From: an uncultured bacterium
GTDB lineage: Bacteria; Verrucomicrobiota; Verrucomicrobiia; Limisphaerales; UBA11358
Assembly: GCA_963723125.1 (NCBI GenBank)
Contig: CAVRPQ010000003.1
Span: forward strand, 837,762 to 901,761
Length of the DNA stretch: 64,000 nucleotides
Direction: 5' to 3'
Position 1 is the stretch's first letter, and each line of letters starts with the position of its first letter. Under the pieces are notes generated by a model. It searched no databases. It saw only the letters and a program-made list of their open reading frames with translations, and had not been told where the DNA came from. Both the position numbers and the translations under genes were made by a program. This document shows, piece by piece, positions 47,261-53,025 of this stretch.

Positions 47261-50200
47261 ATGGCATCCAGACCTTTACATGCAAACGCACAACAGGCTG
47301 CATCATCTGATTCCTGCTCAGAATGTGGGGACAGCGGAGGGAACACATGTCCTCCCGGCTCGTCATCGAGCTTTAGCGCCTTTCCGATTCGGTATGCAAC
47401 GGGTGAAATCCAGTTGAATGTGCAGGATTTAGGTTCGACAGATTTCGGGGTTTCTTGGGGGCATACACGCAGCTACAGTAATCTTGTCACCTCGCCCGAC
47501 GAAGGAATCAATGGCAGCAGTTGGTTTATTAAGGAAGTCCCACAAATTGTTAATGTTGACCCTGATCCAACTGATCCTAACAAGGCGACTATATGTGTTA
47601 TTCAGATTATTACTGAGGCACTTTGGTTCGATTATGTAGCAACCGACGACAGTTATAAACCTCGATTCTTTACTCACGAAACACTGGTTCATGATGCAAC
47701 AAACAAACAGTTCATATTAACAAATCCGCTCGGGGAAATAACGGCGTTTTTCGATTTCGATTCGACACGGCCATCCGCATTGAGGGGCCAGTTTAAGAGT
47801 TTTACTGACGCATACGGACGTGAAACTTTGGCAAACTACAATGAAAGTAATTTGATCGCTTCATTTGTTCAGCGTTCGGGCGGACAAACCGCTGGTTATC
47901 ACTATGCCTATCACTCCAGTGGGGCAAATATTGGCAGATTGCAGTTTGTCACTTATAGAATCAATGGGGAGAATGTCCGACGGGCAAAATATGACTATTA
48001 TGATGGGCCAACTGGATTCGGAAGCGTTGGCGATCTTAAGCGCGCAACCGTGCAACAATTTACCAACAGTAGTTGGAGTGCGATTGCAATTTCATATTAC
48101 CGCTATTACAAGTCGGGTGATAGTGATGGGTTTGAGCATGGCCTAAAGTACGTGTTAACGCCGGTCGGGTATGCTCGGATGGTTGAACTTGGGATCACGC
48201 CGGAAATTTCAACTGATGCGCAATTACGTCGTTTTGCCCAACATCATTTCAGATATACCGCTCAGAAAGGGGTCCATACCGAAATGGTTAGAGGAGGCTC
48301 ACTCACGTACAATTATGCTCGCACTCATAGTGCCAATGTTAATAACTACAATAATTGGAAAACAAAAGCTATCGAGTCCTTGCCGGATGGCAATCAAAAC
48401 ATCGTTTACGCGAATCATGCTGGCCAGGTGATTTTGAAAGTCTTCCTCGAGACCGAAACAAATCAGCAATGGTACAACTACTTTCAGTATAACAATCAAG
48501 GCCAAATAATTCTCGCGGCAGAATCATCTGCCGTTGCCGGCTATAGTGAATCCAATCCTGAACTTGTAACTCTAAATGCCAATAACGGTCTAATTCACAT
48601 TTATAATTTTTATTCAGCGAACCCACCAGCGGATGGTGCTCCACATTATATTCATTTCGAAAAGGTTCAAGAGGGTGGCAGTGGAACGCCAATTATACTT
48701 ACAGAATGGAAATATGTGACTCGGACGGTGGGAGATGTTTCGATCTATGTGCCCTGGAAGGAGATATGTTATCCAAGTGATACCGATCAGACTTTGCATA
48801 TAGAATGTACTGTATACACCTATACTTGGCAGGGTGATTTCCAAGTTGACGAAAAGACAACGATATGGCCGGTTGTATCGGCGGCACAAAACGGCTCTGG
48901 AACCGCAGACAGAAAAGTGGAAAAGCTTGACGCCACCGGGCGTACAATTTGGACGAAAGATGAACGCGGTTATATTACTGGTTTTAGTTACGACGCGGTT
49001 ACTGGTGCTATTGTTCAAAAGGTAGAAGATGCGAGTGTGGGGACGCCGTGGACGCCGTTGCCGGGGCCTCATCTAAATCTTACTACGGATTATACGGTGG
49101 ACAGTCTTGGGCGAACAATTCAGGAATTAGGGCCGTCCCATGATATTGATCTCAATGGAACCAATACTACCGTCAGGCGGGCGAAATGGACCGTTTATCA
49201 AGATGCGACCTATCAGCAATGGGAGGCCTCGGGTTATCAAAGTGTTTCCGATGGCTCATATACGCTGATCAATCCGGTGAGCCTGACCTTAATGGATGAA
49301 GCAAATCGAGTAACGGATGAAATCCAGGCCATTCGAACGAATACGAGCGGCCCCCTGCTTCCTACCGACAGCTTTCCACAAAGCAGCTATGTCCGATGGA
49401 CGAAGAGCAGTTACATAAACAGCCTCGGTTTGAAATACCTGCGGACGTATTTCACAATTCCCGATTCCGGGTTTGGTGTCGAGGGAACAAACTACAATCA
49501 AACTAAATACAATTATGATTCGATGATCCGCCTGGTGCGCGAAAAGAGTCCGGGAGACACGATCACCCGAACGGTGTATCATCCGATGGGATGGGTCTTG
49601 GAAAAATGGATAGGAACAAATGACGCCGGAGCGACTGCTAAAGACCCGAGCGGCGGCGGTTTTCTTGGGAACGACATGGTAATAGTTGAATCGTTTGAAT
49701 ACGATAATAACCTGCCTGGCGGCGATGGAAATCAGACTCAACAAACAGAATATGTTGATGCAACGGTAGCGCGTGTTACCAACTATGGATATGATTGGCG
49801 TGACCGCCAGACCGTTATAGACGGGGAAATTGATTTCTATCAGATTACAACTTATGACAATCAAGATCGGGCGATTCAGGTGGATCGTCGTAATACGAAC
49901 TCTAGCGGGAATTTGATTGGACGTACGGTAACCAATTATGATGACCTGGGACGTGTTTATCAAACCATCACCTATGGAGTTGATCCCGCAACTGGCACTG
50001 TTGGCAATCCTTTGGTGAATAACTCCTGGTATGACCCGTCGAGTAATTTGATCAAGCAGAAATCCGCGGGTAGCTCGACTTTGCAAAAAATGCTTTTGGA
50101 CGCACTGGCAAGAACTATCAAACAATACACTTCATACAATACGGCTGAAACCGGTTATCCCTATCCGGTCAGTGTTGCTAGCGACACGGTATTTCAGCAG

Positions 50201-51336: not shown

Positions 51337-53025
51337 ATGCAACTGACGTACATCCAACAGGACGGTTCCCCACCGATAGGGGACGGAGGGGATCAGTATA
51401 CGGGGTTGGATCGGTTTGGACGGGTGGTGGACCAGCGGTGGATGAAGGAGAGCAGCGGGGCGGATTTGGAGCGGGTGCAGTATGGGTTTGACCGGGCCAG
51501 CAACCGAGTATGGAGGGCCAACCCGGTGGCCGAGGCGCTGTCGGCCAATCAGGACGAGCTTTACACTTATGACGGCTTGAACCAATTGCTGACGCTGCAA
51601 CGGGGCACGCTCAATTCCACAAAGACAGGCATTACAGGAACCCCGACATGGGAAGAAGACCTGACGTTTGACCCGACGGGCAATTGGAACAACTACGTCA
51701 ATTTGGTCAACGGGACGATGACGTTGAACCAGCCCAGGACGCACAATCCGGTCAACGAGATAGTGACGATCAGTGGTTCGAGCGCGTTGATGGTGCAGGA
51801 CGGGGCCGGCAACATGATCAAGGCGCCCAAGGTGAGCGATTGGAGCAACGCCAACGCGATGATCTACGATGCGTGGAACCGGCTGGTGAAGGTATTGGAC
51901 GGAGGGATGACGGTGGCTGCTTACGGGTATGACGGGCAGAACCGGAGAACCACCAAAGCCGTTGGAACGACGACACGGCATTACTATTACAGCAGCCAGT
52001 GGCAAATTTTGGAAGAACGGTTGAATGCGGCAACCACCGCAGACCGCCAATTTGTGTGGGGGTTGATGGGGATAGACAATCTGATTCTGCGGGACTGGGG
52101 AAGTGAACGGCTCTATTCCATCCAAGACGTGTTTAATAGCACGGCGGTGGTGGACGCGAACGGGACGGTGCAGGAGCGGTATGGGTACAATGCGTTTGGA
52201 CTGTCGAGGGTGATGGACGCCGATTTTAACCCGTTATCCTCATCCGGTTACGATTGGGAAACCAGATACGCCAGTTACCGGTTCGACGACGAATCCAATT
52301 TCTACCAGGTCCGTAACAGATATCTGCACCCCAATCTCGGCAGATGGTTGACCAGGGATCAGATGGAATACGGGGATGGCACTAATCTCTATAGTTATGT
52401 TTCCAATAATCCTGCAGCAAAAATAGACCCATCCGGGTTGGATAGCAAATGCACTTGCGGTCTGGAAGTATCCTTAGCTCTGAAACGAACCTATTTAGAT
52501 GTTATTCATAGGTTTAATCTGCTCAGTCGAAATCAAAAGGAAGCGAACTGTCAGCCATTTAGTGCATCACTGCTTAAAATTTTAAATGACCCAGCGCTTA
52601 AGCTCAGAGCATCAACCGGGTGGGACATATATGATCTAGTGTGGGGTTGGTCTAGCCACATACAAACTAAAAAATGTGGTCAAGGACAACAATGTTACGA
52701 AAGTGTTGAGGTTAGCGGTCAATGCTATTGGGCGTGGGATGTCAATTACGTTCTCTATGGTTGGTTAAACAATCTTTGCGAAATTTCCGAGACGAAGATG
52801 CTAATTCGTATTTTTTTATGGAAAACGATCGGAAAAGGCGGCAAGGATCCGGTAGGTCCGCCTAAAGCATGGGCTAAAGTTGGCTATTCGCAGTGGCCTA
52901 TTTTACCAACAACTTTACCGGCGGGCCTTCCTAAATTCAAAAATTGCACAACAGGATGTGGCACCTATCCTAATAGATCTTTGAACTCGACATGGCCAAA
53001 CGCGAGTTGGACAGGAAAGGTTTGA
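51337..53025 (+). CDS. RHS tip 1: YD repeats, RHS-associated core (..RYLHPNLGRWLTRD..DPSGL) and an unassigned C-terminal toxin domain
   Basis: The ATG lies 2 nt after the shell-gene stop, in a different frame, with an in-frame TGA three codons upstream. Core motif FYQVRNRYLHPNLGRWLTRD and cleavage-type motif KIDPSGL at 52426-52440. About 195 aa of unique C-terminus. Confidence 0.8.
   Translation: MQLTYIQQDGSPPIGDGGDQYTGLDRFGRVVDQRWMKESSGADLERVQYGFDRASNRVWRANPVAEALSANQDELYTYDGLNQLLTLQRGTLNSTKTGITGTPTWEEDLTFDPTGNWNNYVNLVNGTMTLNQPRTHNPVNEIVTISGSSALMVQDGAGNMIKAPKVSDWSNANAMIYDAWNRLVKVLDGGMTVAAYGYDGQNRRTTKAVGTTTRHYYYSSQWQILEERLNAATTADRQFVWGLMGIDNLILRDWGSERLYSIQDVFNSTAVVDANGTVQERYGYNAFGLSRVMDADFNPLSSSGYDWETRYASYRFDDESNFYQVRNRYLHPNLGRWLTRDQMEYGDGTNLYSYVSNNPAAKIDPSGLDSKCTCGLEVSLALKRTYLDVIHRFNLLSRNQKEANCQPFSASLLKILNDPALKLRASTGWDIYDLVWGWSSHIQTKKCGQGQQCYESVEVSGQCYWAWDVNYVLYGWLNNLCEISETKMLIRIFLWKTIGKGGKDPVGPPKAWAKVGYSQWPILPTTLPAGLPKFKNCTTGCGTYPNRSLNSTWPNASWTGKV

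Follow-up and report, generated by a model that had tools for sequence, protein, structure and literature searches.

A gene cluster in an uncultured bacterium of the Verrucomicrobiota (contig CAVRPQ010000003.1) is best read as a polymorphic Rhs/YD toxin locus, of a type known from Planctomycetota, whose cocoon appears to be encoded by two cistrons. Position numbers refer to the window, i.e. the whole 64,000-nucleotide (nt) stretch that was analysed. The first cistron, the shell gene (47261-51334, + strand, as are the tips, candidate immunity genes and vestiges described below), encodes 1357 amino acids (aa) that comprise an N-terminal region and divergent YD repeats, without RHS core or toxin. 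By open reading frame (ORF) calling, the shell ends in ...VQVESPQPD, followed by the stop codon TAG at 51332-51334. After a CT spacer, the ATG at 51337 opens a 562-aa ORF in the +2 frame (tip1, 51337-53025), which carries YD repeats (residues 1-295), the RHS-associated core (residues 296-368) and a toxin (residues 369-562); we use "tip" for a gene made up of the YD-repeat remainder, core and toxin. The tip1 frame is closed upstream of its ATG by a TGA at 51328-51330, and the split junction as a whole reads TGA-T-TAG-CT-ATG (51328-51339). All of these landmarks are present as described in an earlier note on this DNA, whose observation is confirmed and whose interpretation is partly supported by what follows. 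Repeats, core, polymorphic C-terminus and cassette array place the locus in the Rhs/YD polymorphic toxin family, although the usual arrangement of N-terminal region, shell, core and toxin on one polypeptide is not found in the window. We conclude that fission of the Rhs cocoon gene is real and recurrent and probably functional.

Along its full length, the shell is collinear with 41 proteins of 1740-2340 aa that run unbroken into a tip-like C-terminus and core. In alignments, these fused homologues read ..VQVxSPQP(G/D)-(T/V)-xLTYIQQ across the junction, where the window has ..VQVESPQPD, a stop, CT and MQLTYIQQ. Since the tip methionine aligns with the T/V residue of the fused homologues, no residue is missing at the split. 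The shell has no significant match to any Pfam or NCBIfam family; Pfam RHS_repeat is weak in the window shell (E=0.39) and matches seven of nine shell-only homologues. Nor does the shell match any PDB chain by sequence, either as a single sequence or as a nine-sequence profile. In tip1, which has 700 homologues at E<=1e-5, RHS_repeat scores 23.3 bits (Pfam, cut-off 22) and the core family TIGR03696 (Rhs_assc_core) scores 59.2 bits at residues 296-368 (cut-off 32.5). The earlier note was thus right in describing a shell that lacks core and toxin, and a second ORF with about 345 aa of YD repeats followed by the core. The core ends in the motif DPSGL (residues 364-368, nt 52426-52440), and this DPxGL motif is the sole trace of autoproteolytic toxin release at the locus.

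The same junction recurs in relatives. In an independent metagenome contig (L004) whose shell is 98% identical, the junction reads GAT-TAG-CG-ATG; downstream come a tip unlike that of the window, a single immunity-type gene, and the second tip vestige and radical-SAM gene that the window also has (see below). Finding this junction, with the same stop, in an independent contig excludes an assembly or sequencing error, and bears out the earlier argument that the gap is not a simple sequencing slip. That note had also considered a strain-specific lesion in an otherwise single gene; the relatives show otherwise, with shells at 52-77% identity to the window shell split at the same codon and the start conserved. 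The junctions read TGA-A-ATG in L001, TAA-A-GTG in L096, after an intact 1384-codon shell ORF, and TAA-AAA-GTG in L098, and stop and start overlap as TCATGA in L002. Hence, among junctions at this codon all three stop codons occur, the start is ATG or GTG, and the spacer ranges from -4 to +3 nt; in every case the distance is very short, as it is between coupled genes, and the frame relation varies. First tips after split shells are intact, at 541-568 aa, in the window, L004, L096 and L098, and L091 and L095 hold arrays of three or four tips, each with its own start. We also detected a second class of split, 35 codons upstream, in four proteins (P0143, P0148, P0150 and P0154) that form a monophyletic group with 100% bootstrap support. 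In these, stop and start overlap as ATGA; the shells have ..NF(N/D)Y.. at their ends and the tips begin with MNxELSRI.., collinear with fused proteins. Two more distant proteins (P0171 and P0175, 37-38% identity) both end in ..ILWLKNS, 38 residues past the junction, and this common end may mark a third split position. A 4-kb ORF, three 1-kb repeats in register and an identical junction in independent assemblies together form a multi-part pattern that far exceeds chance.

Some apparent breaks were rejected as further splits: those in L016, L054 and L046 are plain 1-nt frameshifts without a start codon. In the metagenome-assembled genome (MAG) Planctomycetaceae ABC1.50 (L016, L054, L061 and L082), numerous Rhs copies and fragments bear single-base frameshifts close to the junction region, whether as pseudogenes or through indel errors of long-read sequencing.

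Purifying selection acts on the shell while it is split. Comparing the window with L004, both split, we counted 45.5 synonymous and 28.5 nonsynonymous differences, with synonymous sites at 23% (binomial p=3e-12) and a ratio of nonsynonymous to synonymous substitution rates (dN/dS) of 0.18. For the more divergent split shells of L096 and L001 (77% aa identity), dN/dS is 0.11, and for the YD regions of tips, including tip1 versus tip3 within the window, it is 0.11-0.16. The tip start codon is conserved as well. An (M/V)-x-LTY start is found in 67 of the 120 best tip homologues, with codon 1 being ATG (62) or GTG (5); ten different residues occupy position 2 of these tips while codon 1 remains one of these two. 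A further ten of the 120 start with MNxELSRI. Fused proteins carry T/V where tips have the start codon. Cassettes that are not first in an array likewise keep ATG or GTG at the first homologous codon, as in L091, where successive tips begin MKL, MFL, MLL and MKL. An exhaustive search across 1.84 billion representatives gave about 3100 homologues at E<1e-30; some 22 distinct clusters (50% identity) begin at query residue 1, all of them at about 60% identity or more, and weaker matches are fused proteins, or orphans with variable N-terminal extensions.

We modelled a chimera in which the last 630 shell residues are joined to tip1, using an alignment of 44 fused homologues. The model has a mean predicted local distance difference test score (pLDDT) of 80.4 and a predicted template modelling score of 0.77; residues 1 to ~970 score roughly 90-96, and the toxin alone is disordered. 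In a Foldseek search, the top matches to the chimera are all Rhs cocoons, teneurin YD shells and TcB-TcC (E=1e-37 to 1e-22). In the model, the junction lies in a β-turn between chimera strands 620-626 and 631-634, at pLDDT 93-96. An AlphaFold2 run of tip1 alone, with 69 homologues, reached pLDDT 43 and was unusable for a fold search. The contrast between a tip that models poorly alone and well with the shell is no more than suggestive, as the two runs used different alignments.

Downstream of tip1 lie two further tips. Tip2 (53530-55194, 554 aa) starts with MQLTYIQQ and tip3 (55620-57221, 533 aa) with MKLTYIQQ. The first 1013 nt of tip1 and tip2, as far as ..GRWLTRD within the core, are identical, and beyond them the two are unrelated; tip3 has 91.5% aa identity to tip1 across the first 363 residues. 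Overall, identity among the tips is 92-97% before residue 363 and 4-8% after residue 370, which is the toxin polymorphism of the family. All three tips match RHS_repeat at 23.3-24.3 bits and, at residues 296-368 of each, TIGR03696 at 52.8-59.9 bits, against the cut-off of 32.5. The cleavage motif at residues 364-368 is DPSGL in tip1, DIHGL in tip2 (nt 54619-54633) and DPHGL in tip3 (nt 56709-56723). The tip1 toxin, the 194 residues after DPSGL, is Cys-rich and unrelated to the other tips, and neither it nor the tip2 toxin matches any Pfam family. The tip3 toxin is a Peptidase_M76-like metalloprotease domain (PF09768, Atp23-like, E=1.4e-16; residues 376-518, nt 56745-57173). A Peptidase_M76 domain is also listed for the tip homologues P0013 and P0108.

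One small ORF follows directly 3′ of each tip, in the usual position of an immunity gene, and we predict this role for all three; none of these ORFs (138-180 aa) matches a Pfam family. Candidate immunity gene 1 (52992-53501), assigned by position, encodes 169 aa with one hydrophobic helix from an ATG at 52992, overlaps the end of tip1 and has an alternative ATG at 53037. Candidate immunity gene 2 (55207-55623) encodes 138 aa with a lipoprotein-like N-terminus (..LILTGC), and its TGA overlaps the tip3 ATG (ATGA). Candidate immunity gene 3 (57258-57800), again assigned by position, encodes 180 aa with a signal-peptide-like N-terminus. By eye, the three proteins show a transmembrane helix (1), a lipobox-like LTGC (2) and a signal-peptide-like start (3). 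The hydrophobic N-termini of the candidate immunity proteins hint that the toxins may act in the envelope.

Two vestiges of tips follow. Vestige 1 (57825-57848) consists of an ATG plus seven codons (MKLTYIKQ), where homology stops; vestige 2 (58725-58888) retains about 55 codons of a tip N-terminus, frameshifted and degenerate. The earlier statement that later cassettes begin with M(Q/K)LTYI(Q/K)Q holds at 53530, 55620 and the vestiges, the first of which begins at 57825, not at 57826. Between the vestiges lies a radical-SAM gene (PF04055; 57901-58725, and 7262-8086 in L004), whose stop overlaps the vestige 2 ATG (TAATG). This layout is identical in L004, so the end of the array predates the divergence of the two strains. 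Cassette DNA homology starts exactly at the ATG; upstream identity is 21-37%, i.e. random. A match to ATGAAACTGAC at 43693 is a lone 11-mer that we took as chance.

We lean towards a functional two-cistron Rhs that is translationally coupled and whose halves assemble non-covalently. The shell, which comprises the N-terminal region and some three quarters of the YD spiral, would be translated from the Shine-Dalgarno-like AGGAGG at 47250-47255, 5 nt before its ATG; this is the sole perfect Shine-Dalgarno sequence among 10 locus starts examined, the other nine having at most three of six matches. The ribosome would terminate at TAG 51332 and re-initiate 2 nt on, at ATG 51337 (termination-reinitiation coupling), which would yield a tip made up of the final ~295 spiral residues, the toxin and, between them, the RHS core, which comprises aspartyl autoprotease and plug and contains DPxGL. 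The tiny and variable spacing of the junctions, with all three stop codons, fits such coupling and speaks against programmed frameshifting, for which the frame relation would have to be constant. Since the cut lies in a β-turn, the two chains could complete one cocoon by β-strand pairing, i.e. by β-strand complementation. The core would then cleave after DPxGL, and the next small gene would give immunity. Tips 2 and 3 might be translated and compete for the shell, or might be moved to the first position by recombination in the shared 1-kb 5′ region; YenB with YenC1-3 is a precedent for co-expression of tips, and the footprint left by the identity of tip1 and tip2 supports replacement. A broader proposition, that the locus represents a bipartite Rhs cocoon outside the Tc toxins, in which one shell is loaded combinatorially with several co-expressed tips and the cell deploys several toxins at once without recombination, and in which the junction is a mobile module that converts between fused and split, is one we regard as possible but doubtful.

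Several observations weigh against a functional two-cistron cocoon. A census covered 57 shell homologues extending as far as the junction region. Of these, 41 are fused and collinear across it, so the split is not required for function; about six are split at the window codon, four at the upstream site, and six, P0171 and P0175 among them, are truncated. The earlier note had proposed asking whether the junction is continuous or split in homologues; the split indeed recurs, but it is not the norm of the family. A scan of GTDB genomes gave 78 loci, nearly all from Planctomycetota and at 41-56% identity, whose main genes run through the junction; the orphans downstream in these loci start at varying points, 40-600 codons upstream. 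Taken together, the census and the scan indicate that fused is the majority and outgroup state. On a neighbour-joining tree of the shell part only, split shells are polyphyletic and scattered among fused ones: the window shell and P0121 are sister to the fused P0122 and P0124 (98% bootstrap), and the split P0125 is sister to the junction-spanning P0129 (100% bootstrap). The state therefore flips often, and the split could be a transient by-product of recombination. Some split loci are decaying, with a tip of only 137 codons in L001 and a frameshifted second tip in L098, and the vestiges keep their ATG too, which makes retention of the ATG alone weak evidence. The tips are without a Shine-Dalgarno sequence, though hardly any gene of the locus has one. 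The chimera is one covalently joined chain, and its model does not bear on non-covalent assembly. Finally, the association of arrays with split junctions, which favours the two-cistron reading, is based on 10 loci: four of five split loci have extra tips or vestiges, whereas in five in-clade fused loci (L085, L087 and L109-L111), with 3.4-10 kb of sequence available downstream, a single immunity-type gene is present and extra tips are absent (Fisher p=0.048).

The polyphyly of split shells has a simple explanation. In arrays, cassettes often carry a remnant of the last 20-45 codons of the shell together with the stop and start (L091:868, L092:1404, L095:1148 and 6016, L104:1820, L106:1721 and L098:5056), and homologous recombination with such a junction-bearing cassette probably installs the split in a fused gene; we infer this as the simplest account of the tree. 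The same data are consistent with a classical orphan-cassette array, in which no tip but the first is in use, tips 2 and 3 form a silent reserve and the split junction is a passenger. We consider this rather unlikely, while noting that it coincides with the two-cistron reading for tip1 and that only for tips 2 and 3, where cassette recombination is just as plausible as co-expression, does it say anything different. It would explain the tip1-tip2 identity that breaks off after 1013 nt as a recombination footprint, the shell 3′ remnants with stop and start in cassettes of relatives, and the polyphyly of split states, and polymorphic toxins are known to have their toxin part replaced from stand-alone cassettes (PMC3482391). 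However, non-first cassettes hold ATG or GTG while codon 2 varies, as in L091; the tip3 start overlaps the preceding gene as ATGA; and the distant Planctomycetota orphans begin at variable points, unlike the fixed start of this clade.

A less probable alternative is that the split is a disabling lesion, leaving a locus without a working toxin that persists for immunity or is heading to decay or re-fusion. The fused state is that of the majority and the outgroup, the split shell of L001 precedes a truncated tip, and the state differs between close relatives, all of which speaks for a lesion. Nevertheless, the window, L004, L001 and L096 each have an unbroken 4-kb shell ORF, with dN/dS of 0.11-0.18, and the junctions are clean, with a stop, a tiny spacer and a start at one codon. 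True lesions, as seen in GTDB MAGs, are 1-nt frameshifts that lack a start codon, and the second split position is stably common to a whole clade. We therefore regard a disabling lesion as improbable.

Still more improbable, to a degree that leaves it little room, is that the tips act without the shell, as internally expressed toxin-immunity modules resembling toxin-antitoxin (TA) systems. Tips have their own start codons, and orphan Rhs proteins of Salmonella provide a precedent (PMC7043789). However, the ~295 YD residues and the core, which a TA module would not need, are under strong purifying selection (dN/dS 0.11-0.16), this region models poorly alone and well with the shell, and the membrane-, lipoprotein- and signal-like N-termini of the candidate immunity proteins suggest extracytoplasmic targets. 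Weakest of all is recoding, by programmed frameshift or readthrough, into one fused protein, with sequencing or assembly error as a sub-case: the last shell codon and the tip ATG are only 5 nt apart, and shell and tip line up collinearly with fused homologues, but spacers of 1, 2 or 3 nt or a 4-nt overlap, three stop codons, no constant frame, no slippery site and the TGA at 51328-51330 that closes the tip frame upstream make it scarcely credible, and L004 excludes the sub-case. Programmed frameshifting in particular was rejected, as the junction spacing is not constant.

The two-cistron reading is best judged against known systems. TcB and TcC of the Tc toxins are two proteins that form one cocoon and also exist as natural fusions (PMC7861908, PMC11067744), and one YenB packages three alternative YenC subunits, YenC1-3 (PMC11067744). 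As in TcB/TcC (4IGL, 4O9X), two gene products would make one Rhs-type cocoon, with two cistrons here whose joined sequence models as one cocoon; the C-terminal product holds the core protease and hypervariable toxin; several alternative C subunits could pair with one B subunit; and split and naturally fused versions coexist, as in this family. The folds match (Foldseek E=1e-31 to 1e-22), at a sequence identity of only 13-16%. In contrast to TcB/TcC, the tip starts at about residue 280 of TccC2, which makes it about half a TcC, and the cut is not at the TcB/TcC boundary: tip profile positions 52-366 align to TccC2 (6l7i_G) residues 331-664, and also to residues 1792-2180 of the TcdB2-TccC3 fusion. 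No TcA- or TcB-specific domain (SpvB, mid domains, β-propeller) was found by Pfam in the shell and 20 neighbouring or larger ORFs. Thus, the resemblance to TcB/TcC drawn in the earlier note stands for the fold and the two cistrons, whereas the cut falls some 280 residues inside TcC and the accompanying domains were not found in these ORFs. A further difference from TcB/TcC is the immunity-type gene after each tip, whose presence points to a role against bacteria rather than insects. We regard the locus as analogous to TcB/TcC, yet outside that family.

The locus also has much in common with the rhs orphan arrays of E. coli, Salmonella and Dickeya (PMC3150448, PMC3482391). Like these, it combines a YD β-cocoon with a DPxGL-containing RHS-associated core, and has a hypervariable toxin at the C-terminus, a small immunity-type gene next to it, and tandem toxin-plus-immunity cassettes that share 5′ homology with the main gene, together with vestiges and the 1013-nt recombination footprint of tip1 and tip2. 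Unlike in these arrays, the main gene consists of two cistrons, divided ~365 codons ahead of the cleavage motif, every cassette begins at this codon with an ATG or GTG of its own and carries ~295 shell residues, arrays within the clade were seen only with split junctions, and neither a type VI secretion system (T6SS), PAAR or VgrG nor a signal peptide was found near the locus. Measured against the displacement model for orphan Rhs C-termini, the locus has the shared 3′ part of the main gene with differing toxin and immunity genes; in place of variable 5′ truncation without an own start, it has a fixed start codon. Starsta et al. 2020 showed that, in Salmonella, internal starts give rise to orphan Rhs C-termini, which function as type II TA modules (PMC7043789). 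The tips resemble these in being C-terminal Rhs fragments with their own translation start and an adjacent immunity-type gene, but there the start is a weak internal CTG near the toxin, whereas here it is a conserved ATG/GTG ~365 codons before the cleavage site, and the tips retain a large part of the shell under selection. A literature search, incomplete in its coverage, found no description of a split or bipartite Rhs of this kind.

The prevailing view is that Rhs toxins are single-chain capsules and that downstream orphan cassettes are silent spare parts. Should shell and tip prove to be separate products that assemble, the orphan cassettes of this lineage would be active genes. Two-part cocoons would then have arisen at least twice independently, here and in TcB/TcC, with different cut points, and the YD spiral would tolerate fission at β-turns, a property useful for Rhs/Tc capsules with exchangeable cargo modules. 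The frequent interconversion of fused and split forms is also a natural experiment in how the gene of a giant repeat protein is split and rejoined.

We also surveyed the neighbourhood. Using Pfam on the same ORFs as above, we found no PAAR, VgrG, LXG or Tc-toxin domain and no T6SS part, and no signal peptide was found near the shell gene, all in keeping with the earlier note as regards PAAR, VgrG, LXG and the signal peptide. There are no tRNA genes within the window. Scans of positions 46000-59000 for consensus promoters (25 sites, versus 19.5±3.9 in shuffled sequence) and consensus terminators (10 sites, versus 12.7±3.2) gave no excess, so that operon structure could not be inferred from them. 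Upstream of the shell, at 46874-47182, a 103-bp unit is repeated three times in tandem (93% matches), with a TTGACT motif per unit, ending ~80 nt 5′ of the shell ATG; the repeat is missing from L004, where only the last ~70 nt before the shell ATG are common. Neighbouring genes encode glycosyl-, methyl- and sulfotransferases, a radical-SAM enzyme and conjugative-element proteins. Rhs loci of this family are repeatedly flanked by genes for glycosyltransferases (GT2, GT9, GT25), methyltransferases and a sulfotransferase, as seen in the window (40278-44474 and 59990-63290) and in L001, L085, L086 and L110-L112. Upstream in the window are genes for a TrwC relaxase (25300-28146), an AAA_30/TraI-like helicase (36925-38241) and a DDE transposase (4136-5251), whose presence suggests a conjugative or integrative element. 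The Rhs loci L110 and L112 adjoin Replic_Relax, TrwB-like and integrase genes.

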